Below, one piece after another: positions 2,273 to 21,538 of a stretch of 64,000 nucleotides of DNA. The notes beneath the pieces are model-generated. The model was not told the origin of the DNA and searched no databases. It worked only from the letters and a program-made list of their open reading frames with translations. Both the position numbers and the translations under genes were made by a program. This DNA is from Candidatus Latescibacterota bacterium. Lineage in GTDB: Bacteria; Latescibacterota; UBA2968; UBA8231. The stretch spans positions 2,880,001 through 2,944,000 of the forward strand of contig OZ220089.1 of NCBI GenBank assembly GCA_964291625.2. The letters run 5' to 3'. Each line of letters begins with the position of its first letter. Within the stretch, counting starts at the first letter, position 1.

Positions 2273-3114
2273 AGCGTCCTCCGGGGGCCCGGCCCCGGCC
2301 GCGCAAGCGCTTCGGCCAGCACTTCCTGATGGACGCCGAGGCGCGGGCGGCGATCGCCGATCTGGTGCGTCCGGCGCCCGACGACCTCGTCCTCGAGATC
2401 GGCCCGGGCAGGGGAGCGATCACCGCCCCCCTGCTGGACCGGCTGGACCGTCTCGCGGCGGTGGAGATCGATCGGCGCCTCGCCGGCCAGTTGCGGTCCC
2501 GGTTTCCAGACCCGCCCCTTCGCCTCATCGAGGGGGACATCCTTCACCTCGACCTGGCGGCGCTCCCCGGCGAGGAAGGCCGGCGCAACCTCTTCGTCGT
2601 CGGCAACCTGCCGTACGACATCACCGCTCCCGTCCTCTTCCGGCTCCGGGAGCATGCCGGCCTGGTTCGCCGCGCCGTCCTCACCCTCCAGAAGGAGGTC
2701 GCCGAGCGGCTGGTGGCGGCCCCGGGGTCACGCCGATACGGCCGCCTCACGGTGATGCTGAACCAGTGCGCCCGTATCGACCTGGCGCGGCTGATCCCAC
2801 CCACCGCCTTCCGCCCCGTACCCCGGGTCGAATCCGCCGTGGTCGACATCGAGTTCCTGCCCGGCCGCGTTTCCGTGGTCGACATGGGGCGCTTCGAGCA
2901 GATCGTCAAGGCCGCCTTCGCCCAGCGCCGGAAGATGCTCCGCAATGCCCTGGCCGCCCTGCCCTCTCCCGGGCCCGAGGGCGGAGCGGTCGCCCCCGGC
3001 AGGCTGGCGGACCTGGCCGGGCGCGCCCGGATCGACCTGACGAGGCGCGCCGAGAACCTGAGCGTTCACGACTACGCCCGCCTCACCGGGGTGTGGGCCG
3101 AGGCGGCGGCGTGA
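2269..3114 (+). CDS. rsmA: 16S rRNA adenine dimethyltransferase
   Basis: Motifs RKRFGQHFL, VLEIGPGRG, VGNLPYDI, QKEVAERL, AFAQRRKMLRN; GTGA overlap with holB. Confidence 0.95.
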   Translation: MKRPPGARPRPRKRFGQHFLMDAEARAAIADLVRPAPDDLVLEIGPGRGAITAPLLDRLDRLAAVEIDRRLAGQLRSRFPDPPLRLIEGDILHLDLAALPGEEGRRNLFVVGNLPYDITAPVLFRLREHAGLVRRAVLTLQKEVAERLVAAPGSRRYGRLTVMLNQCARIDLARLIPPTAFRPVPRVESAVVDIEFLPGRVSVVDMGRFEQIVKAAFAQRRKMLRNALAALPSPGPEGGAVAPGRLADLAGRARIDLTRRAENLSVHDYARLTGVWAEAAA

Positions 3115-5989: not shown

Positions 5990-7003
5990 ATGCGATTCTC
6001 CCTCGCTCTGTGCGCCGCCGCCCTGCTCGCCTGCCTCCCGGCCCTGACGGGGTGCCAGAGCTCGCTCACGGCCGGCAAGCTCTACATCCAGCAGGAGCAG
6101 TACGACAAGGCCCGGGTCCAGCTCGAGCTCGCCGTGGCCGAGAAGCCCGGCAACGCCGAGGGGTTCTTCCATCTCGGAAGGGTCTGCGGATTGCAGGGCG
6201 ACTATCCGGCCATGGCCGACGCCTTCGACCGGGCCCAGGAGCTGGAGGACGAGTTCGACGAGGAGATCGCCGCCGAGAGGCGGCGCTACGGGGCGCGGAT
6301 CTACAACGAAGGGGTTGTCGCCGCCTCCGGGGAAACTCCCGACCTGGAGGCCGCCCGCGGGCACTTCGCCCTCGCCGTGCGGGTCCTGCCCGATGAGCTG
6401 ATGGCCTGGCGCAACCTCGCCGTCATCGACTATCAGCTCGGCGATCTCGATGGCGCCGTGACCGGCTTCGAGCACGTCGTCTCGCAGGCGCCCGACGACA
6501 CGTCGACGTACCGCATGCTGGGCACCTTGTACCTCAGTCGGCAGAGCTACGACGAGGCGGCCCGCTGCTTCGAGGAGGTGCTGAAGCACGGCGAGCATCA
6601 GGGCGCCCTCGCGCATCTGGCCATGGTCCACATGGACCAGGACCGGCCGGCGGAGGCGGGGGAGCTGCTGCAGCGCGCCCTGGCCCTGAATCCGGACTGC
6701 TTCGATTGCCACTTCACCCTGGGCAACCTGCACTGGGCCGGCGAGGAATTCGCGGTCGCCCGCCGACACTTCGAGCGCGCCGTGGCACTCGACGACGGCA
6801 ACGCCGATGCCCGCTTCAACCTCGCCGTGACCTACCTGGCCCTGGAGGAGCTGGATCTCGCCCTTCCGCTGCTGGAGCGGCTTTCCGTCGAGCTGCCGGA
6901 GAATCCCGCAGTGTGGCGTGAGCTGGGCCGCATCTACGCCTTGAGGTCCCGCATCCAGGAGAGCGAGGCCGCGTACGAAAGGGCTGAAGCCCTGGGCGAG
7001 TAG
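5990..7003 (+). CDS. Tetratricopeptide-repeat lipoprotein
   Basis: Lipobox-like ALTGC; multiple TPR-pattern helices (e.g. AEGFFHLGRV, ARFNLAVTY, VWRELGRIY). Confidence 0.8.
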   Translation: MRFSLALCAAALLACLPALTGCQSSLTAGKLYIQQEQYDKARVQLELAVAEKPGNAEGFFHLGRVCGLQGDYPAMADAFDRAQELEDEFDEEIAAERRRYGARIYNEGVVAASGETPDLEAARGHFALAVRVLPDELMAWRNLAVIDYQLGDLDGAVTGFEHVVSQAPDDTSTYRMLGTLYLSRQSYDEAARCFEEVLKHGEHQGALAHLAMVHMDQDRPAEAGELLQRALALNPDCFDCHFTLGNLHWAGEEFAVARRHFERAVALDDGNADARFNLAVTYLALEELDLALPLLERLSVELPENPAVWRELGRIYALRSRIQESEAAYERAEALGE

Positions 7004-7012
7004 CGTCGCCGA

Positions 7013-8067
7013 ATGCCCGTCTCGCGCGCCCACGCCCTGCGCCAGTACGTCCTCCGGCGCCTGCTCCTGATCCTGCCCACCCTGCTGGGCATCACCTTCC
7101 TCGTCTTCCTCCTGTGCCAGTTCGTGCCGGGCGGTCCCATCGACCAGATGCGGATGCGCATCGCCGGGGCCGATCAGGCCGGCGAGGCCGGGGCCGCGGC
7201 CGGGGTCCGCTTCTCCTCCATCGAGATCCCCGAGGCGGACCTGGAGAGCCTGCGGCGGTACTACGGCTTCGACCGTCCCCTGCTGGTGCGCTACGGCCTC
7301 TACCTGGCGAACCTGGCCACCCTCGATCTGGGCGATTCCTTCCGCTACACCATGCCGGTGGAGGACCTCATCGTCAGCCGCATGCCCATCTCCATCTACT
7401 TCGGCGGCATCGCCTTCCTCCTGACCTATTCGATCTGCATCCCCCTCGGGATCCTCAAGGCCCTGCGACACAAGAGTCCCTTCGACAACCTCACCTCCTT
7501 CGTCATCTTCCTCGGGTACGCCATCCCGGGGTACGCCTGGGGGCCGTGCTGCTCGCCCTCTTCGCCGTGCAGCGGGACTGGTTCCCCCTGGCCGGATTCG
7601 AGAGCCAGGGCTTCGCCGACCTGAGCCTCCCGGGCAAGATCCTGGACCGACTGCACCACACGGCCCTTCCCGTCCTCTGCTTCGCCATCAGCCTCTTCGC
7701 CTTCATGACCATCCTCATGAAGAACAGCCTGCTGGAGAACATGGGCGCCGACTACGTCAAGACCGCCCTCGCCAAGGGCATGACCTGGAGGCGCTCGGTC
7801 TTCGTCCACGCCCTGCGCAACTCGCTCATCCCCATCGCCACCAGCTTCGGCAACAACATCTCCCTCATCCTCGCCGGCTCCCTGCTCATCGAGCGGGTCT
7901 TCGGGATCCCCGGCATGGGGCTGCTGTTCTTCGAGGCCATCACGGCCCGCGACTACCCGGTGGTCATGGGCTACATCTTCATCTCCTCGGCCCTGCTGCT
8001 GGTGGGCAACCTCCTCAGCGACCTGTGCGTGGCCTGGGTCGATCCGCGCGTGAGGTTCGGCGAGTGA
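7013..8067 (+). CDS. Peptide ABC transporter permease (YejB/OppB-like), frameshifted near 7537
   Basis: The N-terminal half (YVLRRLLLILPTLLGI, PGGPID) is in ORF 7013..7624 and the C-terminal half (ADYVKTALAKG, HALRNSLIP, RDYPVV, DPRVRF) is in ORF 7114..8067. Adding one C in TACGCCTGGGGG restores GYA-LGAVLL. Confidence 0.85.
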
Positions 8068-9125
8068 TCCCGCGCCTCGACCCGATCACCCGCCTGCGCC
8101 TGCGCCGCTTCCGCCGCATCCGCCGCGGCTACGTCTCCTTCCTGATCCTGCTGGGCCTCACCGTCCTGTCCCTGCTCTCCAACTACGTCGCCAACCGGCG
8201 GGCCATCGTCGTCCACTACCAGGGGGAGTACTACTTCCCCACCTTCCGCTTCCACGACATGGCCACCTTCGGCCAGCAGGACGAGTACGGCTTCGACGAC
8301 GTGGAGGCCGACTACGCGGCCCTGCGGGCGCGGTTCCAGGAGGCCGGCGGCGGCGACTGGGTGTGGATGCCGGTCGTCCCCTTCGACCCGTACGAGCCCG
8401 ACTTCAGCTATGACGATCCGCCGCCCAACCCTCCGGACTCCCGGCACTGGTTCGGCACCGACTCCCAGGGCCGGGACGTCTTCGCCCGGCTCCTCTACGG
8501 TTTCCGGATCTCCATCCTCTTCGCCGTGACCCTGGTTTTCACCAGTCAGGCGGCGGGCACCGCCATCGGCGCCCTGCAGGGCTTCGTGGGGGGCCGCTTC
8601 GACATCCTCAGCCAGCGCTTCATCGAGATCTGGTCGACCCTGCCCTTCCTCTACGTGGTCATCCTCCTGGCCACCTTCTTCAAGCCCACCTTCGGGCTGC
8701 TGCTGGTGATCATGGCCCTCTTCGAGTGGATCCGCATGACCTACTACATGCGCACCGAGGTGTACCGCGAGAAGACGCGCGACTACTGCCTGGCGGCGCG
8801 CTCCTTCGGCGCCTCGCGATGGCGCCTGATCTTCCGCCACCTGCTGCCGAACTGCCTGACGCCCCTGGTGACGATCACGCCCTTCGCCATCGTCGGCGCC
8901 ATCAGCGCTCTCACCGCTTTGGACTATCTCGGGTACGGCCTGCCGGCGCCCACTCCGAGCTGGGGCGAGATGATCGATCAGGCTCTCGACAGCCAGAACC
9001 GGGACAAGATCTGGCTCTCCGTGGCGCCCTTCTCCGCCCTCTCCGTCACCCTCGTGCTTGTCACCCTCGTGGGCGAGTCGATCCGCGAGGCCTTCGACCC
9101 CAAGCAGTACGCCCATTACCGATAG
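8064..9125 (+). CDS. Peptide ABC transporter permease (YejE/OppC-like)
   Basis: GTGA overlap with the upstream gene; motifs RFRRIRRGY, HWFGTDSQGRDV, AARSFGAS..RLIFRHLLPN, PSWGEM, REAFDPK. Confidence 0.9.
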   Translation: MIPRLDPITRLRLRRFRRIRRGYVSFLILLGLTVLSLLSNYVANRRAIVVHYQGEYYFPTFRFHDMATFGQQDEYGFDDVEADYAALRARFQEAGGGDWVWMPVVPFDPYEPDFSYDDPPPNPPDSRHWFGTDSQGRDVFARLLYGFRISILFAVTLVFTSQAAGTAIGALQGFVGGRFDILSQRFIEIWSTLPFLYVVILLATFFKPTFGLLLVIMALFEWIRMTYYMRTEVYREKTRDYCLAARSFGASRWRLIFRHLLPNCLTPLVTITPFAIVGAISALTALDYLGYGLPAPTPSWGEMIDQALDSQNRDKIWLSVAPFSALSVTLVLVTLVGESIREAFDPKQYAHYR

Positions 9126-9139
9126 ACGAAAGGACCCCC

Positions 9140-10960
9140 ATGGGGAGCCGCTTCCCTCTCATCATTTTCCTGCTGCTCACCCTGGGCGCCCGCAGCGGCG
9201 CCGAGGACCTCTCCGCCATCGAGTGGGAGACCAACACCGATGACCCGCCCATCGGCGATCCCGCCGCCCGCAAGGGGGGCGAGTTCCGCACCTTCATGAC
9301 CGCCTATCCCCTGACCCTGCGCCTCGTCGGTCCCAACGCCAACGACGCCTTCGCCGCCTGGAAGCGGGCCGTCACCATGGCCTTCACCATGGTCAGCCGC
9401 CACCCGACGACGGACCGCCACATCCCGGTCATGGCCACCCACTGGTCGGTGCAGGAGGACGGGCGCACCATCTACTACAAGCTCGATCCCGACGCCCGCT
9501 GGAGCGACGGCCAGCCGGTGACGGCCGAGGACTACGTGCACACCTGGCGCATGATGCGCAGCGAGCACATCGTCGATCCCTTCTTCAACCAGTACGCCGA
9601 GGACTACTTCGAGGAGGTCGTCGCCCTCGAGCCCCACGTGCTGAGGATCGTGGGAAAGTTCGAGAGCTGGCGCCCCCTGGACATGTTCGATCTCTGGGCG
9701 ACCCCGAGGCACGCCGTCACCCTCGGGGAGGGGTTCCCCGACCGCTACAACGACGCCGTCCTGCCCGTGCAGGGCGCCTACGTGCTCACCGAGCGCGTGC
9801 CGGGGCAGTACGTCGTCTTCGAGCGTCTGAAGGACTGGTGGGGCCGGGACAAGCACTACATGCAGGGCATGTACAACGTCGACCGCATCCACGTGCGCGT
9901 CATCGACGACACGGACCGCGCCTTCGACTTCTTCAAGAAGGGAGAGCTCGACTACTACAGCGTGAACACGGCCCGCATGTGGGCCGAGGAGATGGACTTC
10001 GAGGCCTTGCGGCAGGGCTGGGCCCACCGCAAGCGGCTCTTCGTCGACTATCCCCAGGGGGTGTACGGCTTCGCCATGAACCTCGAGCGGCCGATCTTCC
10101 GGAACCAGGATTTCCGCAAGGCGATCCAGTACCTCTTCAACTTCGACGAGATCAACTCCAAGCTGATGCACGACGCCTACTTCCGGCAGGTCTCGGCCTT
10201 CACCGGCACCGAGTACCAGAACCGGGACCTGGTGCCGTACGGCTTCGACCCGCGCAAGGCGCGCGAGCACCTGAAGGCGGCGGGATTCACCCGCCGGGGC
10301 GAGGACGGCATCCTCGTCGACGGCGAGGGCACCCGCGCCGCCTTCACCCTCTCCTACGGCAGCAAGGGGCTGGAGCGGCACATGACCGTCGTCAAGCAGA
10401 CCTTCCAGCGCTTCGGCGTCGACATGGCGCTGCGCCTGCTGGAGCCCGGCACCGCCTTCCGCAACGGGCTGGAGCGCGAGTACGAGATGACCATCATGGG
10501 GCGCACGGCCGGCCTCTACCCGAGCCCCCATCAGTACTTCTCCACCGTCTTCAAGGAGTCGAAGAACAACAACAACGTCTGGGCCTTCGGGACCGCCTAC
10601 ACCGACTCCCTCATCGACGTCTACCGCTTCGATACCGACAAGGAGCGCCGCCTGGCGGCGATGCACGAGCTCGACGCCATCGTCCAGGACGAGGCCTTCT
10701 ACGTGCCCTTCTGGCATGCCCCCTTCATGCGGTTCCTGCACTGGGACCACCTGCGCTTCCCGGAGTTCTACTTCCCCAAGCGCACCCAGCAGATGACGGA
10801 CTGGCAGGTCTTCTGGGTCGACGAGGACCGCCAGGCAGGGCTGCGGGAGGCGATGGCCGAGGGCCGTTCCCTCGGCGCGGACCCGGTCGTCGACATCGAC
10901 CCCTACCGGGTGAAGGACCGCATCGAGGCAGCCCTGCGCGCCGCGGCGCCGCCGGAGTAG
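9140..10960 (+). CDS. Peptide ABC transporter substrate-binding protein (family 5, YejA-like)
   Basis: AAGGA RBS; signal peptide; motifs GDPAARKGG, ARWSDGQPVTAED, FERLKDWWG, FRKAI, GYDP-like YGFDPRKA. Confidence 0.88.
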   Translation: MGSRFPLIIFLLLTLGARSGAEDLSAIEWETNTDDPPIGDPAARKGGEFRTFMTAYPLTLRLVGPNANDAFAAWKRAVTMAFTMVSRHPTTDRHIPVMATHWSVQEDGRTIYYKLDPDARWSDGQPVTAEDYVHTWRMMRSEHIVDPFFNQYAEDYFEEVVALEPHVLRIVGKFESWRPLDMFDLWATPRHAVTLGEGFPDRYNDAVLPVQGAYVLTERVPGQYVVFERLKDWWGRDKHYMQGMYNVDRIHVRVIDDTDRAFDFFKKGELDYYSVNTARMWAEEMDFEALRQGWAHRKRLFVDYPQGVYGFAMNLERPIFRNQDFRKAIQYLFNFDEINSKLMHDAYFRQVSAFTGTEYQNRDLVPYGFDPRKAREHLKAAGFTRRGEDGILVDGEGTRAAFTLSYGSKGLERHMTVVKQTFQRFGVDMALRLLEPGTAFRNGLEREYEMTIMGRTAGLYPSPHQYFSTVFKESKNNNNVWAFGTAYTDSLIDVYRFDTDKERRLAAMHELDAIVQDEAFYVPFWHAPFMRFLHWDHLRFPEFYFPKRTQQMTDWQVFWVDEDRQAGLREAMAEGRSLGADPVVDIDPYRVKDRIEAALRAAAPPE

Positions 10961-10977
10961 GCCGGAGCGCTCCCGAC

Positions 10978-11952
10978 ATGGCGCTCCTGCGAGTCGAGGA
11001 TCTGCGCACCGTCTTCCGCACGGAGGACGGCGTCGTGCAGGCGGTGGACGGCGTCTCCTTCGAGGTGCGCGCCGGCTCCACCGTGGGGATCGTCGGCGAG
11101 TCGGGCTGCGGCAAGAGCGTCAGCGCCATGTCGGTCATGCGCCTGATCCCCGACCCTCCCGGGCGCATCGAGGACGGACGGGTCCTGTGGAAGGGAAGGG
11201 ATCTGCTGGCCGTCGACGCCGACGAGATGCCGGGGATCCGCGGCCGGGAGATCGCCATGATCTTCCAGGACCCCATGACCTCCCTCAACCCGGTCTTCAC
11301 CGTGCGCCGGCAGCTCGGGGAAGTTCTGGAGAAGCGCTTCGGCCTGGAGGGGGAGGCCGCCGGCGCGCGCATGGTGGAGATGCTGCGGCGCGTGGGGATC
11401 GCCGACGCGGAGAGCCGGCTGGACCAGTACCCCCACGAGCTCAGCGGCGGCATGAAGCAGCGCATCATGATCGCCATGGCCCTCATGTGCGAGCCGGACC
11501 TGCTCATCGCCGACGAGCCCACCACCGCCCTCGACGTGACCGTGCAGGCCCAGATCCTGCACCTGATGAAGCAGCTGCAGAGGGAGCTGGGCACGGCGAT
11601 CCTGCTCATCACCCACGACATGGGGGTCGTGGCCGAGACCTGCGACGAGGTGGTGGTCATGTACGCCGGCAAGGTGGTCGAGCGCTGCGGCGTCATCGAG
11701 CTTTTCGAGGGCAGCCGCCACCCCTATACGCGGGGCCTCCTCGACAGCATCCTGCGTCCGGGCCGGCCCCGGGGCGCCGGCGTGCCCACCATCGAGGGGG
11801 TCGTGCCCTCCCTCCTCGATCCGCCGCCAGGATGCCGCTTCGCCGACCGCTGCCCCCGCGCCGAGGAGCTCTGCCGCCGCGAGGACCCGCCCCTGGAACC
11901 GGTCGCCGACGGCCACCTGGCCGCCTGCCACTATCCCCTGGAGGCGGTGTGA
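10978..11952 (+). CDS. Oligopeptide ABC transporter ATP-binding protein (OppD-like)
   Basis: Motifs GESGCGKS, IFQDPMTSLNP, YPHELSGGMKQR, ADEPTTALDV, HPYT and C-terminal Cys cluster GCRFADRC..C..C. Confidence 0.93.
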   Translation: MALLRVEDLRTVFRTEDGVVQAVDGVSFEVRAGSTVGIVGESGCGKSVSAMSVMRLIPDPPGRIEDGRVLWKGRDLLAVDADEMPGIRGREIAMIFQDPMTSLNPVFTVRRQLGEVLEKRFGLEGEAAGARMVEMLRRVGIADAESRLDQYPHELSGGMKQRIMIAMALMCEPDLLIADEPTTALDVTVQAQILHLMKQLQRELGTAILLITHDMGVVAETCDEVVVMYAGKVVERCGVIELFEGSRHPYTRGLLDSILRPGRPRGAGVPTIEGVVPSLLDPPPGCRFADRCPRAEELCRREDPPLEPVADGHLAACHYPLEAV

Positions 11953-12926
11953 GCGCCCCCGTCGTCGAGGTCCGCGGCCTGCGCAAGCACTACCCGGTGG
12001 GCGGCGGTCTCTTCGGGCGCCGGAGGCAGAGCCTGAAGGCCGTGGACGGCGTCTCCTTCGACCTGCCGGCGGGCCGGACCCTGGGGCTGGTCGGTGAGTC
12101 CGGCTGCGGCAAGTCCACCCTGGGGCGGACCATGATGCGGCTCGAAGATCCGACGGCGGGCGCCGTCCGCTTCGAGGGGCGCGACCTGGCGCAGGCCACG
12201 GCGAAGGAGCTGTTCGCCCTGCGGCGCGACATGCAGATGATCTTCCAGGACCCCTATTCCTCGCTCAACCCGAGGCTGTCGGTGGGCGAGACCGTGCGCG
12301 AGCCCCTCGACGTGCACGCCCTGGGGACGCGGGCCGAGCGGCGCGAGCAGGTCGACGGTCTCCTCGAGGCCGTGGGTCTCGACCCGGCCGTGCAGGACCG
12401 CTATCCCCACGAGTTCTCCGGCGGCCAGCGCCAGCGCATCGGCATCGCCCGCAGCCTCGCCCTGGGGCCGAAGGTCATCGTCGCCGACGAGCCGGTCTCC
12501 GCCCTCGACGTCTCGGTGCAGGGGCAGGTGCTCAACCTCCTGGTGCGCTTCCAGCAGGAGCGCGGCCTCGCCTACCTGCTCATCTCCCACGACCTGTCGG
12601 TGGTGGAGTACCTCAGCCACCGGGTGGCGGTCATGTACCTCGGGCGCCTCGTGGAGTTCGGCTCCCGGGAGGAGGTGTTCTCGCGGCCGGCCCATCCCTA
12701 CACGCGGGCCCTGCTGGAGGCAGTACCCGTCGCCGACCCCCGCCGCCGCCGCGAGCGCGAGCCCCTCCTGGGGGAGACGCCGAGCGCGGTGAACCCGCCC
12801 GCGGGGTGCGCCTTCCACCCCCGGTGCCCCTTCGCCGTCGACGCCTGCCGGGGGCAGGTCCCGGAGCTGGAGCCCGTCGGCGACGGCGGCCACACCGCCG
12901 CCTGCATCCGCAAGGACGAGATCTGA
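11949..12926 (+). CDS. Oligopeptide ABC transporter ATP-binding protein (OppF-like)
   Basis: GTGA overlap; motifs GESGCGKST, FQDPYSSLNPR, YPHEFSGGQRQR, DEPVSALDVS, HPYT, GCAFHPRC. Confidence 0.93.
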   Translation: MSAPVVEVRGLRKHYPVGGGLFGRRRQSLKAVDGVSFDLPAGRTLGLVGESGCGKSTLGRTMMRLEDPTAGAVRFEGRDLAQATAKELFALRRDMQMIFQDPYSSLNPRLSVGETVREPLDVHALGTRAERREQVDGLLEAVGLDPAVQDRYPHEFSGGQRQRIGIARSLALGPKVIVADEPVSALDVSVQGQVLNLLVRFQQERGLAYLLISHDLSVVEYLSHRVAVMYLGRLVEFGSREEVFSRPAHPYTRALLEAVPVADPRRRREREPLLGETPSAVNPPAGCAFHPRCPFAVDACRGQVPELEPVGDGGHTAACIRKDEI

Positions 12927-12949: not shown

Positions 12950-13672
12950 CTACATCAGGTTCAGCCAGTCGTCGAGAAGGAAGCTGACCCGCCCGATGAG
13001 CAGGGACAGGCGGGCCATGACCGTGTACCCGAAGGAGGCTCCGAAGGAGATCATCAGGAACCAGATGCCGAGCTTGGAGGCGGTGCCCACGGCCCCGGTG
13101 TGCTCCACGGAGAAGAAGAAGTAGATGAGCACGGTCAAAACGCCCACGAGGACCAGCAGCAGGTTGAACCCCTCCCAGGTGAGGGTGATGGGCGCCAGGC
13201 TGGGCTCGATCTGCCCCAGGACGAAGGAGGACAGGTACCGGGGGATGGTAAGGCCGGCGCCGACGCCGACGACAAAGGCGAAGGAAAGGCGGCTGAGCCA
13301 GCCGATGCGGCGGGAGAACCGGGTCAGCATGAGCAGGCCCAGGAGGGTGGGGAACAGCATCACCCAGGGGTCGTGTCCGCCGCCGCCGCCGTCCAGATCG
13401 ACGTAGGTCCGGATGATGTCGTCGAGGAAGACGTTGTACCAGGTGATGCCGAAGACGTACGCCGCGGCGACGCCCACGTACACATGCTCGGCGACCTTGA
13501 ACAGGGGATTGTCCTTGTAGAGGAAGCTGTACAGGGCGAGGGTGAACCCGGCGGCGACGATCACGCCCGCCCCCTCCCAGTCAGCCTCCAGCAGTCCGCT
13601 GCCGATGAGCACGGCGTTGGCCGCGGCGAAGAGGGCGACGAAGCCGGCGAAGAGGTAGAGGTCTCGAGTCAT
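12950..13672 (-). CDS. Conserved-looking polytopic membrane protein, last gene of the GlmL-like operon
   Basis: About 7 hydrophobic segments; motifs LYSFLYKDNPLFKVAEH and FGASFGYTVMARLSLLIGR; AGGA RBS. Confidence 0.8.
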   Translation of the reverse strand: MTRDLYLFAGFVALFAAANAVLIGSGLLEADWEGAGVIVAAGFTLALYSFLYKDNPLFKVAEHVYVGVAAAYVFGITWYNVFLDDIIRTYVDLDGGGGGHDPWVMLFPTLLGLLMLTRFSRRIGWLSRLSFAFVVGVGAGLTIPRYLSSFVLGQIEPSLAPITLTWEGFNLLLVLVGVLTVLIYFFFSVEHTGAVGTASKLGIWFLMISFGASFGYTVMARLSLLIGRVSFLLDDWLNLM

Positions 13673-13679
13673 GGCGTCC

Positions 13680-14510
13680 TCAGGCCTGACTGTCCCGCCG
13701 GCGGGAGGCGAAGTAGGCGATGTTGCCCAGGATGATGAACAGGACGATGATCAGGTGGGTCACGGACTGCGGCTGCATGCCGTCGGTGGCTCGGCCGGGT
13801 GCGTCCACCAGCATCTCGTACTCGGCGGCCCCGGCCAGCCCGCCGAGGAGGCCCACGAGCTGCCCCGACTGCAGGAAGGGGTAGAGGTCGGGGGCCATCA
13901 CCGCCGTGCAGCCCCCGCCGAAGGGGAACCGGTGCTTCTCCTGGCCGTACGGGATCCACCAGTACTCCATGGAATCGCCTGCGGCGAAGTCGAAGACGAA
14001 GGAGAAGTCCTTCAGGTTTTCCACCCCCGCCAGCACCGGCAGGTCGCCCACCGGGGTCCCCTCGGTGTCGAAGGGAAAGGTGTCGGCCACGCTCTGCCCC
14101 ATGTTCAGCACCACCGCCTGATAGCCGATCTTGTAGCCCAGGAAAGCGTAGTCGACCCCGTACCGGCGGCCGAACTCGGCGGCCAGCTCGTCCATCACCG
14201 GCTGGGCGAGCCCCACCGCCTCGGGCCACAGGCAGATGGCGACCACCTTCAGCCCCCGTTGGAAGAGGTGGCGCACGACGGCGCGGGTCATCGGTACCAT
14301 CTCCGGCTCGGTGCTGGCGCCGTAGGAGAACGAGACCAGCACCGGCCGGCCGGCGTCCTCGGCGGCCACTCTCTCGATCTCGTCGTACACCGAGCGCACC
14401 GTGGGAGACGGCTTGATCGGAAGGGGGAGGTCCACCAGCAGGGGGATGGCCACCCCCAGAAAGACGAAAACGAAGATGAAGCGGCGGTCCAGGTTGATCA
14501 GCCGGTCCAT
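13680..14510 (-). CDS. Membrane-anchored protein with a soluble alpha/beta domain, GlmL-like operon
   Basis: N- and C-terminal TM helices flank a soluble domain; motifs GVDYAFLGYK and GLLGGLAGAAEYE; GGAG RBS. Confidence 0.8.
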   Translation of the reverse strand: MDRLINLDRRFIFVFVFLGVAIPLLVDLPLPIKPSPTVRSVYDEIERVAAEDAGRPVLVSFSYGASTEPEMVPMTRAVVRHLFQRGLKVVAICLWPEAVGLAQPVMDELAAEFGRRYGVDYAFLGYKIGYQAVVLNMGQSVADTFPFDTEGTPVGDLPVLAGVENLKDFSFVFDFAAGDSMEYWWIPYGQEKHRFPFGGGCTAVMAPDLYPFLQSGQLVGLLGGLAGAAEYEMLVDAPGRATDGMQPQSVTHLIIVLFIILGNIAYFASRRRDSQA

Positions 14511-14513
14511 GGT

Positions 14514-15173
14514 CTACTCCTCCCCCCCGCCGCCGAGATAGGAACGCTCGATGCCGAAGATGATGCGCAGGGAGGTGGCGATGGCGCCGAGACTGACGCC
14601 GAGCAGGATGCCGCGCTTGGCCGCCATGTTGGGCACCGTCATGAGCCACTGCATGGCCTCGGGGATGGCCTCGGATACATAGCCCCCGATCGGCACCCGT
14701 CCGAGCATGACGATCACCGCCGAGACCAGCAGGATCGCCGCCTCGGGGGTGCGCGCCCGGAAGGTGCGGTACGCCGCCGAGGAGATGAAGAAAGCGAGGG
14801 TGGAGAACATCGTCGCCGAGCTGGCCACGTGGATGTGGGTGAACATCCACTGGTAGGCGCCGGTCTTCGACTGCGCCTGCAGAGGTCCCTGGCCCTCGTT
14901 GTAGAGGACGAAGAGGCACATGACGCCGAAGCTGATGTAGACGATCAGGCTGTAGGCCCAGCCGGACTGCCGCAGGCGGATCTTGGACCAGTGCAGGTTG
15001 AGGAGGCTGTAGAGACCGAGGAAGTAGGCGAAGGCGGAGACCACCCGCAGCCACAGGGCGAAGGCCTGCGTGGTCTCTTCCGCATAGGGGTGGGGGCTGT
15101 AGAAGATGGCGAAGCCGGCGACGCCGAAGAGGAAGCAGATGGCGAAGGGCAGGGTCCGTGTCAGGAATGGCAT
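14514..15173 (-). CDS. Polytopic membrane protein, GlmL-like operon
   Basis: About 6 TM segments; motifs ATMFSTLAFFISSAAYRTFRART and RIIFGIERSY; GAGGA RBS. Confidence 0.8.
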   Translation of the reverse strand: MPFLTRTLPFAICFLFGVAGFAIFYSPHPYAEETTQAFALWLRVVSAFAYFLGLYSLLNLHWSKIRLRQSGWAYSLIVYISFGVMCLFVLYNEGQGPLQAQSKTGAYQWMFTHIHVASSATMFSTLAFFISSAAYRTFRARTPEAAILLVSAVIVMLGRVPIGGYVSEAIPEAMQWLMTVPNMAAKRGILLGVSLGAIATSLRIIFGIERSYLGGGGEE

Positions 15174-15183
15174 CGGCGTCCTC

Positions 15184-16392
15184 TCACAGGGAGGCGGACA
15201 ATTGGGTCAGGAAGTCGACGCCGGCCGTGGACAGGATGGTGCCGGCCATGAGCACGAGGATGAGCACGGCCTTGCCCACGTCCTGGCCCCGCAGGCTGCC
15301 GAGGAGGCGCGGCTCCTTCGACAGGTAGGCGCTGGCGGCGTAGAGCTCCTCCCCCATCAGGGTGTAGTCGCAGGTGGTGACGAAGAACGGCAACTGGGTG
15401 TAGGCGTCGGTGCCGGCGATCTGAATGGCCCCGGTGGTGCTGCCCGTCTCGGTGAGGAGCAGCGACTCGGCGTAGAAGTATCCCATCATGATGTGCGCCG
15501 CGGGACGGTCGCGGACCATGATGCCCTCCAGGGCCGCGGCGTAGGAGAACTGCTCGGTGCCGGCCATGAACACGTCCCCGGGCCGGTAGGCGTCGGGCCG
15601 GCCCTCCTCCAGGCAGGCCTCCTTCACCACCTCCTGGCTCACCGACATGACCACGGGGTCGACGTTGGCCACCCGCAACTCGGCGTCCAGGCGTGCCGTG
15701 CGCCGGGCCACCCGGCCGAGGATGTTCACGGCGGCGATCGTCGGGATCTGGTCCATGCCCTTCAGGCCGTGGACGAACAGCACCGAGCGGCCCATCTCGG
15801 TGGCCCGCCCAAGGGCCTCGTCGAGGGCTTCCAGGCCCCCGATGCGCCGGATGTAGAGCTCCCGGCGCCGGGCCACGGCGATGAACAGGAGGATCACCAC
15901 CGACAGGGCCAAGGCGAGGACGAGGTTGTTCAGCTTGGCCGTGTTGAACAGGTCGGGCGCCGGCGCGGCTGCCGCCGGCTGGCTGCGCCTCGCCTCCGCG
16001 CCCTCCCCGGCGACGAGACGGGCCTGGTAGGTCGTGCCGTCTTCCAAGGCCCTCGGCTTCTCCTCCCCTTCCGGCGTGTAGCCCGTGAGGTGAAGCACGT
16101 AGCGTTGCTCGTTGGCGTCGTCGTGGCCGAAGAGGGCCGGCTCGTCGGACATCCGCCCCGGGGCCATCGTCTCGGCGGCCACGTGGAAGGGGCCCTCCGG
16201 CGATTCGGCGAGGTAGACGCGGTAGAGGGCGCCGGCGGGGGCGGCATCGGCGCGCCAGGTCAGGCTCAGGCTGCCGCCGGCGTCGTTCGGCGTGTCGAAG
16301 AGATCGATCTCGAAGGCCGCCGGCTGCGCCCCGGCTCCGGCCAGCAGCCCGAGTCCGGCGACCAGGGTCAGGGTTCTACCGAAGTCCGTCAT
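15184..16392 (-). CDS. Signal peptide + FN3-like exported domain + TM + DUF6754-like domain protein
   Basis: ATG at 16392 (ATGA overlap); signal peptide; DTPNDAGGSLSLTW...YRVY FN3-like strands; C-terminal IRRIGGLEALDEALGRATEMG, GYFYAESLLL, QLPFFVTTCDYTLMGEELYAASAYL. DUF6754 is recalled, not searched. Confidence 0.7.
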   Translation of the reverse strand: MTDFGRTLTLVAGLGLLAGAGAQPAAFEIDLFDTPNDAGGSLSLTWRADAAPAGALYRVYLAESPEGPFHVAAETMAPGRMSDEPALFGHDDANEQRYVLHLTGYTPEGEEKPRALEDGTTYQARLVAGEGAEARRSQPAAAAPAPDLFNTAKLNNLVLALALSVVILLFIAVARRRELYIRRIGGLEALDEALGRATEMGRSVLFVHGLKGMDQIPTIAAVNILGRVARRTARLDAELRVANVDPVVMSVSQEVVKEACLEEGRPDAYRPGDVFMAGTEQFSYAAALEGIMVRDRPAAHIMMGYFYAESLLLTETGSTTGAIQIAGTDAYTQLPFFVTTCDYTLMGEELYAASAYLSKEPRLLGSLRGQDVGKAVLILVLMAGTILSTAGVDFLTQLSASL

Positions 16393-17516
16393 CCTGCGAT
16401 CAGCTCCACGTTGGCCCGCGGCACCACGGCCCGCGAGCCGTCCTCGAACTCGACCTCCAGCACCCGCACCGAGGCGCCGGACTCGACCGCCCGCAGGTCG
16501 GGGATCAGCTCGCCCACCCTGCCGATGCGGCCGAAGTACGGGGCCCGGATGATACGAAGGGGGTCTCCATGCGCCATCCCCCCCCCGCGGCTTCCCCCGC
16601 GGGCCTCCGCCTCTCCCGGTCCCGTCGGGTCCGGGACGATGATCTCGGGGCGCATGACCCCCGCCCGGATCTGGGTCGCCCCCGAGATCGAGGCCTGGCG
16701 GCCGTGGCAGTCCCGGAGGATCTCGAAGGTCCGGCCGGCCATGGCGATCTCGCCGAACCCCTCGGTGACGATCACCGTCAGTCCGATCTCCTCGGTGCCG
16801 GTGATGGCGACGCCGAGGTCGTAGCCCAGCAGCCGCCGCAGGTCCCGATCGTGGATCCCGCCGCCGATCACCCCGGCGGCGCCCACCTCGCGGGCCCGGT
16901 CGATCGCCTCGTACGACAACAGACCCGTGACCACCACGATCCGGCCCGAGCACTCGTCGTCGATCCGGTCCGCTGCCAGCGGCTCCCCGGGGTTCTCCGC
17001 GAGCATGTGGAGGGGCCCGTAGCGCTCGCCGCCGACACCGAAGATGCCCTGCACGAAGGCCCCCCGCGTCTCCACCACCACCCCTTCGTTCTCGATAACC
17101 TCGACCACCTGGCCGTCGACGTAGGCCCGTACCTCCACGGGCAGGGCCGGCTCCCGGAGCAGGACCTGCCCGGTCACCGGCGAGATGCTGTCCACCGTGC
17201 CGTCGATGGGGGACTCCACCGTGGTCTTGAACCACTTGATGAAGGGCCGCGTCTCGGCCATCGGCTCGCCCCGCCGCACCTCGTCTCCTTCGGCCTTGAG
17301 CATGAACCCCGGCAGCTCCTCGGCGGTGATGCCCAGCCGGTTGACCACGTTCACCGTGGAGACGCTGCCGGGCAGCTCGGTGCGGGCCACCACCTGTTCG
17401 CGCTCGACGCCGTCGCCGACGGCGGCCAGTACCTGGCCCCGCAACGGCAGACGGCGCGTCCGCCGGAGGACGGTGGTGGGCGTCACGGACAGTCCGGGCG
17501 TGTAGGCGTGGGCCAT
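16389..17516 (-). CDS. Uncharacterised partner of the GlmL-like ATPase (barrel-sandwich hybrid repeats, swivelling-like domain, C-terminal KOW-like segment)
   Basis: ATG at 17516 (TGATG overlap), MAHAYTPGL start; hybrid-motif repeats VGDGVEREQVVA and EGDEVRRGEPMA; QGIFGVGGE; TEGFG; TQIRAGVMRPEII; GDPLRIIRAPYFGRIG; VPRANVE. Confidence 0.75.
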   Translation of the reverse strand: MAHAYTPGLSVTPTTVLRRTRRLPLRGQVLAAVGDGVEREQVVARTELPGSVSTVNVVNRLGITAEELPGFMLKAEGDEVRRGEPMAETRPFIKWFKTTVESPIDGTVDSISPVTGQVLLREPALPVEVRAYVDGQVVEVIENEGVVVETRGAFVQGIFGVGGERYGPLHMLAENPGEPLAADRIDDECSGRIVVVTGLLSYEAIDRAREVGAAGVIGGGIHDRDLRRLLGYDLGVAITGTEEIGLTVIVTEGFGEIAMAGRTFEILRDCHGRQASISGATQIRAGVMRPEIIVPDPTGPGEAEARGGSRGGGMAHGDPLRIIRAPYFGRIGRVGELIPDLRAVESGASVRVLEVEFEDGSRAVVPRANVELIAG

Positions 17517-19387
17517 CAGTCCCCCCCTCCGTAGAGCCCGAGGGCGCGGCTCCAGTCGCCGATCCGGTCCCGCCTCTCCCCGTCCTCCTCGGGCAGGCTC
17601 AGGGGGCGGCCCCGGCCGTCGAGGACCAGTCCGACGACGCCGCCCCGGACCCGGGCCCGGTGTTCCTGCCCCGGGCCCGACCCCGCGTCCCGGCCGCGTG
17701 CCGGGGAGATCGTCATCTCCGCCTCCTCCCCGTCGGCCAGCGGCAGCAGCCGCAGCTCGCCGCACCGCAGCTCTCCCCCCCCCACCGGCCCGTCCGGCAG
17801 GCGCAACTCGTACGAAGCGCACAGATCGCCCGGTTTTCCCTCCCCCGAGGGAGCGACGCAGGTGCCCAGGTAGATGATGCAGTCGCGCTCGAAGACGTCG
17901 GTGGCGGCCTGCTCGTCCACGGAGGCGAGCACGCCGAGGTGGGGCATCATGAAGATGCTGTCCACGGCGAGCTGGGTGACGCCCTCGGGCTGGAAGGCGT
18001 CGACGAGCATGGCGGCGGTCTGGGCCCGGCGGGGGGCGTGGGAGAGCACGCCGCCGCTGCCGACCAGCAGGTCGAGGACCATCATGTCCACCAGGCTCTC
18101 GCCCGTGGCCTCCTGGTCGAAGACGTCGGACAGAGTGCGCTCGCTCTGCACCCCCTTCAGACCGACGGCCAGCTCCCGGTGCTGCACGAGGGCCAGCCGC
18201 AGGGCCTCGCGGGCCACGGCGTGCTCGATCTGCAGCTCCTCCAGCATGTGGGGGATCGTCGTGGGCCGGATCATCTTGTTCTTGATGCGGTCCCGCAGGT
18301 CGGCCTCGTCGATGTCGAAGGGGATCCAGCGCACGACGTTTTCCAGCGAGGCCTCGGCCAGGACGTTGGAGATGCTGTAGGACATGCCGAGGTTGGCGCT
18401 CACCGTGCGGTTGAAGACGGTGCCCGGACCCTCCGGCTCCCCGGCCTCCGCCCCGTCCTCTCCGGGGGCGGGGTCCGCCTGCCCTTCCGCCGCCGTGTGG
18501 AAGACGCTGAAGACGTCGGTCGTGGCGCCGCCGATGTCGACGCCGAGGACGTCGATCCCCTTGCGCCGGGCGATCGCCTGCATGATCCGGCCCACCGCCG
18601 CCGGCGTCGGCATGATCGGGGCGGCCGTCCAGGACATCAGCTTCGAGTACCCGGGGGCCTGGGCCATCACGTGCTCGAGGAACAGGTCGTGGATGACGTG
18701 CCGCGCCGGGCCCAGGTTCTCGCGCTCGAGGACGGGGCGCAGGTTCTCGGTCACGTGCAGGGCCGTGCGCTGGCCGAGGACGCGCTCCACCTCGGGGCCC
18801 GCGTCCTGGTTGCCGGCGAAGATCACCGGCAGCTCGAAGCCGGCGCCGAACCGGGGCCGGGGGTCGGCGGCGGCCACGTACTCCGCCAGCTCGACCACGT
18901 GGGAGACCGTGCCGCCGTCGGTGCCGCCGGACAGCAGCACCATGTCGGGGCGCAGGTGGCGGATGCGCTCGATCTTCTCGTAGGGCTGGCGGCCGTCGTT
19001 GGAGGCGAGCACGTCCATGACGATGGCGCCGGCCCCGAGGGCGCAGCGCTGGGCGCTCTCGCCGGTCATCGACTGCACGACACCGGCCACCATCATCTGC
19101 AGGCCGCCGCCGGCGCTCGAGGTGGAGATGTAGATGTCGACGCCGCGTCCCTCCGCCGCCGGGGTGATGATGCGCTCGCCGTCGAGGATCCGCCGCCCCG
19201 AGAGCTCCTCCACCTCCTGGATGGCGTTCAACACGCCCCGGGTCACGTCTTCGAAGGGCGCCTCCACCGTGGTCGGGGCCTCGCCGCGGAAGGTCTGCCG
19301 GTAGCCCTCTTCCAGGCGCTCGATGAGAATCGCCTTGGTGGTGGTGCTGCCGCAGTCGGTGGCGATGATGACGTCGGGCCTATCCAC
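17516..19387 (-). CDS. GlmL/MutL (glutamate mutase L-like) ASKHA-fold ATPase
   Basis: Phosphate-1 DCGSTTTKA, SSAGGGL, LSGGTDGG, PIMPTP, phosphate-2 DIGGATTDV, RTVSANLGM, GSGGVLSHAP. Confidence 0.85.
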   Translation of the reverse strand: MDRPDVIIATDCGSTTTKAILIERLEEGYRQTFRGEAPTTVEAPFEDVTRGVLNAIQEVEELSGRRILDGERIITPAAEGRGVDIYISTSSAGGGLQMMVAGVVQSMTGESAQRCALGAGAIVMDVLASNDGRQPYEKIERIRHLRPDMVLLSGGTDGGTVSHVVELAEYVAAADPRPRFGAGFELPVIFAGNQDAGPEVERVLGQRTALHVTENLRPVLERENLGPARHVIHDLFLEHVMAQAPGYSKLMSWTAAPIMPTPAAVGRIMQAIARRKGIDVLGVDIGGATTDVFSVFHTAAEGQADPAPGEDGAEAGEPEGPGTVFNRTVSANLGMSYSISNVLAEASLENVVRWIPFDIDEADLRDRIKNKMIRPTTIPHMLEELQIEHAVAREALRLALVQHRELAVGLKGVQSERTLSDVFDQEATGESLVDMMVLDLLVGSGGVLSHAPRRAQTAAMLVDAFQPEGVTQLAVDSIFMMPHLGVLASVDEQAATDVFERDCIIYLGTCVAPSGEGKPGDLCASYELRLPDGPVGGGELRCGELRLLPLADGEEAEMTISPARGRDAGSGPGQEHRARVRGGVVGLVLDGRGRPLSLPEEDGERRDRIGDWSRALGLYGGGD

Positions 19388-19712
19388 GGCGCCGGTCTTC
19401 CCCTTCGGTGATCGCCTCGATGATCCAGTCGATGCTGCGGCGCCTTTCCAGCAGTCCCCGAAGGCGGTCGTACTCGGCAGGCGAGAAGGCGAGCTTCAGC
19501 ATGGGGCCGGCGAAGGCCAGCACCTGGCTGCCCATGAAGCTCAGGGGCCGGGTGCTCTCGAGCGCCATCAGGGCCGGCGCCGTCAGGCGGCGGCGCACGA
19601 CGAGGCGGGCCAGGCGCTCTATGAGGGCCCGCTCCTCCTCGGAGAGGGGTTCCCCGGAGTCGAGGGCGAAGGCGTGGGACCAGCCGCGCCGCAGGCGCTC
19701 AAGCGGGGACAC
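19380..19712 (-). CDS. Small hypothetical helical protein
   Basis: Overlaps both neighbours; ERLARLVVRRRLTAPALMALESTRPLSFMGSQ. Confidence 0.65.
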   Translation of the reverse strand: MSPLERLRRGWSHAFALDSGEPLSEEERALIERLARLVVRRRLTAPALMALESTRPLSFMGSQVLAFAGPMLKLAFSPAEYDRLRGLLERRRSIDWIIEAITEGEDRRRG

Positions 19713-20136
19713 GGGCCCGTGCCAGGGCGACGACTTCGCCGGCGTCGACGCCGGGGCCGAAGCGCAGGAACACTCCGCGGAAGGAATCGAGCCGGCTCGG
19801 CCGCCGGAAGGGGCTCAGGAAGAGACCGTCGGCGTGGCGGTCGACGCGGCGGAAGGTGGACCAGGGCCGGCGGCGCCAGGTCAGCTGGCGCCAGGCGGCC
19901 TCATGTTCGTCGAGAATGTACCGAGTCGGGAGCAGGTAGCGGGCGGTGGCTCCCGCCAGCGCCAGGAGCGAGATCAGTCCGTAAACGGCGCCGCCGAGGC
20001 TGGCGGCGGCCAGGGTGGAGAACCCGACGATCAGGGCCCCCAGGGCAGCCGACTTCCAAGCCGGCTCCTGGCGAAGCGGGTGGGCCGTCCATGCGAGGGG
20101 GCCGTGCCGGCTGGCGGTCGGGTCGCTCGCAACCAT
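19699..20136 (-). CDS. Hypothetical membrane protein (2 TM plus short beta domain), first gene of the operon
   Basis: ATG at 20136 lies 7 nt after a TATATT -10-like box; two hydrophobic helices; YLLPTRY, LSPF..PSRLDSFRGVFLRF. Confidence 0.65.
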   Translation of the reverse strand: MVASDPTASRHGPLAWTAHPLRQEPAWKSAALGALIVGFSTLAAASLGGAVYGLISLLALAGATARYLLPTRYILDEHEAAWRQLTWRRRPWSTFRRVDRHADGLFLSPFRRPSRLDSFRGVFLRFGPGVDAGEVVALARARVPA

Positions 20137-20174: not shown

Positions 20175-21455
20175 TCAGAGGAGGAAGTCGGGTACGGACT
20201 CGTTCGCCGTCACCTGCTCCAGCGTCTGCCGCCTCCGCAGCAGGTGGAAGCCGCCGTCCGCGCCCAGGAGCACCTCCGGCGCCTCGGGGAAGGAGTTGTA
20301 GTTCTTGGCGGACATGGCGGCGCAGTAGGCCCCGGCGCCGCCGATGACGACGGCGTCACCGACGCGCGCCTCGGCGAGGGGGCGCACCCGCAGCGCCTCC
20401 GGGTCTCCAGGGGCCGGCGTCAGGATGTCGCCGCTCTCGCAGCAGTGACCGACGACGAGGTACTCCCGCAACGGGCGATCGCCGTCCCCCCGGGGGACCA
20501 CGGTGAGCGGGTGCTGGGCGCCGTACATGCTGGGACGCAGGATCTCGGTCATCCCCGTGTCCGTCTTGATGAAGGAGAAACCCTCCTTGCCGGTGTCGAC
20601 CACGTCGATCACGCTGGCCACCACGGCCCCGGCGTTGCCCACCAGAAAGGTGCCGGGCTCGATCTCCAGGCGCAGCCGGCGCCCGCAGTCGTCGGCGAAC
20701 CGCCGCAGCTCGTCGACGATGGGGGCCGCGGCCCTCGGCAGGTCGGTGGAGGACTCGCCGCTCATCCGTCCGATCTTGTAGCCCCCGCCCAGATTGACGG
20801 CGGTCACGTCGGGGAGGTGCCGGGCCAGGTTCAGCGTCAGGCGGGCGCAGTGCTGCCACACCTCCGGATCGGTTCCCGAGCCGATGTGGGTGTGCAGGAG
20901 GGTGATGCGCAGCCCGCTGGTGCGCGAGATCTCCAGGACCCGCTCCAGGTGAGTGTGCCAGATCCCGAAGCTGGCGGAGGGGCCGCCGACGTTGGTGCGG
21001 TTCGAGTGGCCCGAGCCCAGCCCTGGATTGAGACGGACGGCCACCTCGGCTCCGGGAGAGCGCTCCCCGCAGGCCGCCAGCTGGTCGAGGGAGCAGGCGT
21101 TGATGCGGACCCCCAGGGCGAACAGTTCCTCGAAGTCCTCGGGCAGCTGCTGGGCGGTCAGCAGGATGTGGCCCGCCGGGACCCCCGCGGCGATGGCGCG
21201 GCGAGCCTCCCAGCCGGAGCTGGCGTCGATGTGCAGGCCCGCCCTCGTCAGAACGCGCAGCACACCCGCCGAGGGGCAGGCCTTCATGGCGTAGCGCACC
21301 GTCATGCCGAAGGGGGCGGGCAGCTGAAGGGCCTGCTGTGCCTGGGCCTCCAGCGTTGCCTGATCGTACACGTAGAGCGGCGTGCCGAAGCGATCCTGGA
21401 GGGCTCGAACCTGGCCCTCGTCAAGGAAGCGGAGAGGCTCTTGGGCGGTCGTCAT
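20175..21455 (-). CDS. lysA: Diaminopimelate decarboxylase
   Basis: FGTPLYVYD, PLP-lysine YAMKA, HTHIGSG, NLGGG, EPG, RPSMYG, GHCCESGD, GAY. Confidence 0.9.
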   Translation of the reverse strand: MTTAQEPLRFLDEGQVRALQDRFGTPLYVYDQATLEAQAQQALQLPAPFGMTVRYAMKACPSAGVLRVLTRAGLHIDASSGWEARRAIAAGVPAGHILLTAQQLPEDFEELFALGVRINACSLDQLAACGERSPGAEVAVRLNPGLGSGHSNRTNVGGPSASFGIWHTHLERVLEISRTSGLRITLLHTHIGSGTDPEVWQHCARLTLNLARHLPDVTAVNLGGGYKIGRMSGESSTDLPRAAAPIVDELRRFADDCGRRLRLEIEPGTFLVGNAGAVVASVIDVVDTGKEGFSFIKTDTGMTEILRPSMYGAQHPLTVVPRGDGDRPLREYLVVGHCCESGDILTPAPGDPEALRVRPLAEARVGDAVVIGGAGAYCAAMSAKNYNSFPEAPEVLLGADGGFHLLRRRQTLEQVTANESVPDFLL

Positions 21456-21509
21456 GGATGGTCCTATGTTGCTATTTTTACAGCTAGTTGGTAGCTTCTG
21501 GGAGGGCTG

Positions 21510-21538
21510 ATTATCGGCTCCGTCCCGCACTCCGTCAA
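21510..21538 (-). promoter_or_regulatory. Sigma70-type promoter for lysA
   Basis: Minus strand TTGACG-N17-GATAAT. Confidence 0.6.

Follow-up and report, generated by a model that had tools for sequence, protein, structure and literature searches.

A conserved eight-gene module joining a long MutL-family ATPase to a membrane cassette, predicted to form a modular ATP-driven membrane machine

Results

Eight coupled genes encode a putative ATPase, its soluble partner and membrane proteins

We analysed a window of 64,000 nucleotides (nt) of contig OZ220089.1 from a Candidatus Latescibacterota bacterium (assembly GCA_964291625.2), in which a preliminary description had noted eight coupled genes on the minus strand. 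The eight open reading frames (ORFs), here called g1 to g8, lie at the coordinates claimed, all on the minus strand and contiguous from 20136 to 12950. From g1 to g8 the junctions are overlaps of 14, 8, 1 and 4 nt followed by gaps of 10, 3 and 7 nt, and the 1-nt overlap is a base common to the stop codon of g3 and the start codon of g4. The GC content at third codon positions (0.86–0.96, versus 0.41–0.60 at second positions) is as expected in a genome of 70% GC, indicating that the eight ORFs are real genes; each is single-copy in the 5.9-Mb host genome, which is 95% complete. Our best reading of the sequences is that the eight genes would encode a modular, conserved, ATP-driven membrane machine.

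The series opens with two small genes. The first, g1 (19699–20136), encodes an accessory membrane protein of 145 residues with a soluble C-terminal part; it had been described as having two transmembrane segments, of which a hydropathy scan found one over threshold. The second, g2 (19380–19712), encodes 110 residues without a Pfam or NCBIfam match. They are followed by g3 (17516–19387; 623 residues), a predicted ATPase of the actin/Hsp70-fold ASKHA superfamily, and g4 (16389–17516; 375 residues), its putative soluble partner. The remaining four genes form a membrane cassette. The g5 protein (15184–16392; 402 residues) has a variable N-terminal part and a predicted Rossmann-like alpha/beta domain between a transmembrane helix at about 156–174 and a second helix at about 376–394, and g7 (13680–14510; 276 residues) encodes an alpha/beta domain between helices 12–30 and 250–268 with no family match. 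Both g6 (14514–15173; 219 residues), which has a conserved basic loop at about 131–141, and g8 (12950–13672; 240 residues) encode polytopic membrane proteins with no family match over cut-off.

The ATPase belongs to a long clade distinct from GlmL

The g3 protein matches the Pfam MutL family (PF13941) with 425.9 bits over residues 7–503 (gathering cut-off 27 bits). The three ATPase motifs that had been pointed out (DCGSTTTK, DIGGATTD and GSGG) are present, corresponding to the ASKHA phosphate 1 (D11–K18), phosphate 2 (D284–D291) and adenosine (S444–G446) motifs, and are invariant or nearly so in 41/41 aligned homologues. On these fold motifs we assign g3 to the ASKHA superfamily as a predicted ATPase. 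A sequence search of solved structures returned no match for it.

Relatives of g3 are named 'glutamate mutase L' in databases, where the remaining genes of the module are called 'hypothetical'. We found that g3 and its close homologues are long, at about 600–620 residues versus about 460 for GlmL, and carry about 120 additional residues at the C-terminus. The protein fell below the NCBIfam cut-offs for GlmL (NF040745, 226 versus 475 bits), Or-4 (NF040744, 202 versus 600 bits) and TIGR01319 (172 versus 204 bits). Three other long copies and one fused copy likewise missed these cut-offs. Mutase-linked GlmL controls passed TIGR01319 in 3/3 cases and NF040745 in 2/3. Identity to g3 was 62–81% for all 40 aligned long homologues across lineages and 27–31% for mutase-type GlmL (450–475 aligned residues), and a FastTree phylogeny of 46 sequences, built without a formal clade test, split the long from the mutase-type copies by long, well-supported branches. 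By curated cut-offs, g3 is thus placed within Pfam MutL and is predicted to be neither GlmL nor Or-4.

The soluble partner is predicted to carry a swivelling domain

The structure model of g4 (predicted local distance difference test score (pLDDT) 85.8) suggests three domains. A barrel-sandwich hybrid at about 51–123 resembles that of NqrA and RnfC (NqrA, Z 7.8, root-mean-square deviation (rmsd) 2.1, 64 aligned residues). A swivelling beta/beta/alpha domain at 152–299 aligns with RraA over 127 residues (Z 8.4, rmsd 3.2) and with Enzyme I over 110 (Z 8.4, rmsd 3.1), and a KOW/SH3-like domain at 313–375 matches a KOW domain (Z 8.5, rmsd 1.5, 52 aligned). Profile searches agreed with this reading. 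A Foldseek search with the model gave a weak match to the glycerol dehydratase reactivase 1nbw (probability 0.54, E 0.023), and the sequence search of solved structures yielded weak matches only, for g4 as for g7.

Among 45 g4 sequences, no histidine is invariant in swivel residues 152–299 (the phosphohistidine equivalent placed by eye, position 222, is histidine in 22/45), and no lysine is invariant at the hairpin turn (34/45 at position 94 and 37/45 at position 97). The absence of either residue makes it unlikely that g4 is a phosphate or lipoate carrier. Conservation in the swivel domain falls instead on acidic residues, with D223, D225 and D233 kept in 42–43/45 sequences and E242 and E252 in 45/45. 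In the model of g4 alone, order is poor in three conserved stretches, an N-terminal peptide and two loops of the swivel, which would be in keeping with surfaces that take shape on binding a partner.

A fixed DUF6754 domain follows an exchangeable N-terminal part

The g5 protein had been described as an exported protein like FN3 and DUF6754. Its DUF6754 domain is clear (residues 146–397, 370 bits); the FN3 likeness did not hold, there being no Pfam FN3 match here and only one among 62 long relatives. In all of these (the longest 62 of 149) DUF6754 is C-terminal, and the preceding part is a beta-propeller in 11, HEAT in 1, FN3 in 1 and unassigned in 49. The N-terminal part of g5 is exchangeable. 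It is also likely to be exported, from a signal peptide read by eye, and hydropathy and the positive-inside rule make it likely that the DUF6754 domain is cytoplasmic and the alpha/beta domain of g7 outside.

The model of DUF6754 (pLDDT 90.9) shows an alpha/beta domain of six strands flanked by two long helices. Its 50 best fold matches tie at Z 9–10.4 and are generically Rossmann-like (among them sirtuin, phosphoglycerate kinase, RCK and transhydrogenase domain III); Foldseek gave only generic alpha/beta matches with TM-scores below 0.4, and the DUF6754 profile matched no solved structure. Alignments of g6, g7 and g8 (56, 57 and 63 members) gave only scattered sub-threshold family matches, and no membrane protein here matched a characterised transporter over curated Pfam or NCBIfam cut-offs. 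The protein atlas held only unnamed clusters for g7 and no usable named match for g8, and none of the eight proteins matched a PADLOC anti-phage profile at E 0.001. A prediction of DUF6754 and g6 in complex with g4, from which g3 was left out, scored 0.18 against a mark of 0.32, a value that weighs neither for nor against an association. Two candidate homologies were rejected: that between DUF6754 and g7, proposed on strand and helix parallels seen by eye (profile comparison probability below 2%), and that between g6 and g8 (profile comparison not significant).

Gene order is conserved across phyla and reveals two modules

A DUF6754 profile search of genome contigs recovered at least 627 relatives, and gene order was counted in the best 79 loci. 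These came from Latescibacterota, anammox Planctomycetes, Phycisphaerae, Nitrospirota, Methylomirabilis, WOR-3, Poribacteria, Edwardsbacteria, Eisenbacteria, Armatimonadota and others; named relatives of the module are mostly from Latescibacterota, and autotrophic Nitrospira and anammox bacteria keep it. The series g5–g6–g7–g8 was complete and in order in 69 of the best 79 loci, with nine cut by contig ends, one lone g5 and none reordered, and g3–g4 stood upstream of g5 in 54. The same order was found in 20 loci chosen across the phylum, three of which are also among the best 79. The module is therefore conserved rather than unique, as had been surmised. No DUF6754 relative was found in viral contigs.

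In most lineages g2 lies directly upstream of the ATPase gene, even where the latter is separate from the membrane genes. The distribution of g1 is patchy; it occurs in Latescibacterota and a few other lineages and was not detected in Nitrospira or anammox loci. Three loci (L041, L081 and L090) carry two complete cassettes in tandem with one ATPase match per genome. The system has two modules, an ATPase part and a membrane cassette that can be copied or relocated as one unit. Separately, g7 alone is tandemly duplicated in L004/L027, L005/L030 and L083.

Three loci (L110–L112) encode paralogous ATPase–g4 fusions of about 870–940 residues that keep the barrel-sandwich and swivel parts and lack KOW. 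Across the paralogous clade that these form with L126, a g4-like part is either joined to the ATPase in one chain or encoded next after it; this part shows a repeated barrel-sandwich match and lacks KOW, no membrane cassette adjoins, and identity to g3 is 41–46%. An apparent 999-residue g3–g4 fusion (P0377) was rejected as a frameshift artefact, because the frame changes after residue 518.

The ATPase is inherited with DUF6754 and not with B12 mutases

The preliminary description had seen no mutase subunit or B12-binding motif in the window. We found neither GlmE nor a lysine/ornithine aminomutase in the host genome, and its three B12-binding domain matches all lie outside the 64-kb window. 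A strong B12-binding domain (97.7 bits; contig C2, 848278–848610) is distant from the module.

Co-occurrence was counted in a phylum sample of 121 genomes and in 50 DUF6754-bearing genomes chosen outside Latescibacterota (50 of the 64 loci that the scan gave there). The sampled genomes are related to one another, and many of them are incomplete; the counts are therefore a description and not a statistical test. DUF6754 was present in 102/121 genomes of the phylum sample, and a strong MutL match in 101 of these 102 versus 0 of the 19 DUF6754-negative genomes; outside Latescibacterota, 47/50 DUF6754-bearing genomes had a MutL match. GlmE was found in 3/121 genomes of the phylum sample and over cut-off in 0/50 of the second set. 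In each of the three genomes with GlmE, a second MutL match adjoins glmE (as a fragment in one genome); the two such loci inspected are intact glmS–glmL–glmE clusters with their own short GlmL. The ornithine/lysine aminomutase family PF09043 was found in 0/121 and 2/50 genomes, the latter two showing that the search was able to detect it. Strict co-occurrence with glutamate or ornithine mutase, which would have marked the ATPase as a plain reactivase, was thus not seen; the ATPase tracks DUF6754. The ATPase module and the fixed membrane cassette are one co-inherited system, independent of glutamate and ornithine/lysine mutases, and we consider it very probable that all eight genes form a single system unrelated to B12 mutases.

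Some families of the phylum lack the system. One has it in 0/11 genomes, and in families f6, f7 and f10 both DUF6754 and the long ATPase are absent (0/14); most f10 genomes have a weak MutL match in ORFs of up to about 950 residues. Three further loci (L105–L107, from genomes G086, G085 and G072) have a short mutase-type glmL and a glmS-like sequence with no glmE in the 13 kb inspected, and are apparently decayed glutamate mutase operons.

Neighbouring genes lean towards amino-acid or peptide metabolism

Neighbour scans, of which the nearest-neighbour scan covered 46 loci and 100 of 138 listed neighbour ORFs, found no flanking gene common to all lineages. In the window, a lysA-like decarboxylase gene of the pyridoxal phosphate-dependent type (20175–21458, minus strand) ends 38 nt upstream of g1 and may be co-transcribed with it; similar decarboxylase genes occur in four other loci (L003, L017, L087 and L093). 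A scan for consensus matches to promoters and terminators found a promoter-like site at 21538–21510, upstream of the lysA-like gene; neither end of the module showed a terminator-like site. In one sponge metatranscriptome, contigs span the module at a flat depth equal to that of its flanks, so this signal may be DNA carry-over; two further RNA runs covered small shares of the module only.

On the other side, a peptide ATP-binding cassette (ABC) transporter operon of two permeases, a binding protein and two ATPases (7013–12926, plus strand) converges on g8 with a gap of 23 nt. Its first permease is apparently split over two frames near 7570–7620. Upstream of it, also on the plus strand, lie a gene for a TPR-like lipoprotein (5990–7003) and a large unannotated ORF of outer-membrane beta-barrel character (2766–5015), both judged by eye; relatives of the large ORF occur near the module in seven related loci. 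In Latescibacterota, three unrelated types of peptide ABC operon, with binding proteins 23% identical, were found beside or inside the module. They lie between g3 and g4 in L011, L012, L014, L018 and L031, the type in L011 being different. For comparison, the host genome encodes five binding proteins of this kind, and about 2% of its sequence lies close to such a cluster.

Two further neighbours recur. In 8/46 loci examined, the ATPase genes are immediately preceded by gcvPB, and a lipoate ligase gene adjoins the module in several Latescibacterota loci, L090 and L116. In the host genome, gcvP is on another contig and the lipoate ligase match is 2.7 Mb from the module. The neighbours lean towards amino-acid or peptide metabolism, but their order may simply be inherited.

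Discussion

A candidate ATP-driven machine with exchangeable parts

We infer that the ATPase physically drives the membrane proteins, and the choice between transport, sensing and envelope remodelling is likewise a matter of inference. That the module is an ATP-powered transporter, likely an importer, is a serious possibility that we would stop short of calling probable. In its fuller form, which we put forward tentatively, the module would represent a new class of primary active transporter, in which a reactivase-type ATPase of actin/Hsp70 fold and a swivel arm power interchangeable four-protein cassettes, with g5 and g7 perhaps forming an inverted pair whose alpha/beta domains sit on opposite faces of the membrane.

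In such a machine, g3 and g4 would make up a motor acting like the large subunit of a reactivase, ATP turnover causing the swivel to grip and release a partner. This proposal follows from the pairing of an ATPase with a swivel domain, which is the reactivase layout, and from the paralogues in which g3 and g4 are fused. As its partner we envisage the side of the cassette that faces the cytoplasm, with the DUF6754 domain or the conserved basic loop of g6 as the best candidates. The motor cycle would then open and close a path through g6 and g8, cargo would be captured by the exported domain of g5 together with the outer domain of g7, and one motor could serve several cassettes, as in energy-coupling factor (ECF) and some ABC systems.

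Several observations weigh against this reading. The ATPase genes stand apart from the cassette in many lineages, such as WOR-3 and Poribacteria, and in several of the lineages with a separated ATPase g4 does not adjoin g3. No membrane subunit resembles a known permease, so the word 'transporter' rests on predicted architecture. The DUF6754 fold ties name no partner or ligand, the reactivase match is weak (E 0.023) and swivel domains occur widely. An exported domain that can be swapped on a fixed cytoplasmic one suits a receptor just as well. Finally, the link with peptide ABC genes is confined to Latescibacterota and absent from loci of other lineages, and the presence of the module in autotrophic Nitrospira and anammox bacteria argues against a simple role in peptide feeding.

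Weighing the alternatives

The variable exported domains and fixed cytoplasmic part would also fit a transmembrane signalling switch, in which the exported domain of g5 senses a cue, DUF6754 relays it and the ATPase, swivel and KOW parts act on a cytoplasmic target. Binding to RNA or RNA polymerase is common among KOW domains, and the fold ties of DUF6754 include regulatory RCK domains. We consider such a switch unlikely: no regulator or output gene is conserved beside the module across lineages, two conserved polytopic proteins exceed the needs of a simple receptor, and an identity of 62–81% across lineages is, in our judgement, unusually high for signalling proteins. Chaperone-type remodelling of the envelope, in which the motor loads, releases or exchanges a protein subunit or cofactor at the cassette and pumps no small solute, seems improbable to a similar degree. 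It would be the literal chemistry of the closest motor layout, as set out in PMC7674605; the beta-propeller and HEAT N-termini are protein-binding folds, and extreme conservation in single copy suits a housekeeping role. However, no client gene is conserved nearby, and whole families of the phylum do without the system (0/11 genomes in one), so it cannot be essential to all. A membrane-bound enzyme or group translocator, with the ASKHA protein phosphorylating a substrate and the swivel shuttling the activated group to the membrane part, could draw on the sub-threshold matches to Hydantoinase_A, a family in which PMC5214803 describes ASKHA kinases, and on the likeness of the swivel to phosphohistidine domains. 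With histidine at the by-eye phosphohistidine position in only 22/45 sequences and no HydB-like partner among the eight genes, this is decidedly unlikely.

The recurrent gcvPB (8/46 loci) and lipoate ligase neighbours, together with the lipoyl-like barrel-sandwich domain of g4, could point to a helper in glycine cleavage or lipoate metabolism, for example in lipoate uptake or as a lipoylated carrier. We regard this as very unlikely, because the hairpin tip has no conserved lysine, gcv-adjacent copies have glycine at position 94 and, in the host, gcvP and the ligase match lie far from the module. Least credible of all is a plain B12-mutase reactivase beside unrelated membrane genes. The Pfam MutL score (426 bits), the database label and the three B12-binding domains in the genome speak for it; against these stand the three missed NCBIfam cut-offs, all or some of which were passed by the true GlmL controls, the scarcity of GlmE (3/121 and 0/50, with its own short GlmL where present) and of aminomutase (0/121 and 2/50), and the separate clade of the long ATPase. 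A plain reactivase for glutamate and ornithine/lysine mutases is largely refuted.

Significance

To our knowledge, ATP-driven solute pumps use P-loop (ABC, F/V-type) or P-type motors. If the proposed machine is real, a pump or remodelling machine that drew on an actin-fold motor of the reactivase type would represent a new mechanism, and a solute pump without a P-loop or P-type ATPase would be common to Nitrospira, anammox bacteria and many uncultured phyla. The module is highly conserved and occurs in most sampled Latescibacterota; its presence in nitrifying Nitrospira and in anammox bacteria opens it to tests in laboratory-grown organisms. The widespread label 'glutamate mutase L' on such entries marks this module and not glutamate fermentation, which matters for the metabolic reconstruction of uncultured phyla.

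Comparison with known systems

With GlmL/MutL, g3 shares the Pfam family and the ASKHA phosphate and adenosine motifs. The known proteins are short (about 460 residues) and mutase-linked, whereas g3 is predicted to work with a swivel-domain partner and a four-gene membrane cassette and falls in a clade of its own. The diol and glycerol dehydratase reactivases (DdrAB/GdrAB, 1NBW) come closer in layout. According to PMC7674605, the alpha subunit of a dehydratase reactivase comprises an ATPase and a swivel domain, and ATP hydrolysis releases a subunit from the swivel. Here the same pairing of an ASKHA ATPase with a swivel appears, as a predicted fold, across two genes, and in one chain in the fused paralogues of g3–g4. 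The differences are that a separate gene encodes this swivel, together with barrel-sandwich and KOW domains, and that the partners are membrane proteins and not a soluble enzyme. Neither g3 nor any of 45 g4 sequences had a reactivase-family Pfam match, and the neighbours scanned included no dehydratase, no genome-wide search for dehydratase genes having been made. As to a counterpart of the reactivase small subunit, which resembles the dehydratase beta subunit, DUF6754 is Rossmann-like, with generic ties as its top 50 fold matches.

In ECF and some ABC importers, one energiser serves several interchangeable membrane modules with a variable outside capture domain. The likeness to these and other shared-ATPase importers is one of logic only: g3 has a predicted ASKHA fold and not a P-loop, the eight proteins include no ABC_tran match, and no membrane subunit of the module matches a known permease family over cut-off. 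Among soluble relatives, ASKHA modules act as kinases in the family of hydantoinases/oxoprolinases and acetone/acetophenone carboxylases, according to PMC5214803. These enzymes have related ATP-binding motifs and gave the sub-threshold Pfam matches; they differ in being soluble, with a catalytic beta-subunit, and the operon holds no HydB-like partner. The swivel carriers Enzyme I, PPDK and rifampin phosphotransferase have an invariant histidine, and lipoyl and biotinyl carriers an invariant hairpin lysine, neither of which was found in g4. We found no published description of the module, of DUF6754 or of the long MutL-type ATPase, subscription journals and supplements being outside the search. 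By the tests run, the sequences place the whole system outside every described kind with which it was compared, as it appears to be neither GlmL nor Or-4, and neither a dehydratase reactivase nor an ABC or ECF importer.

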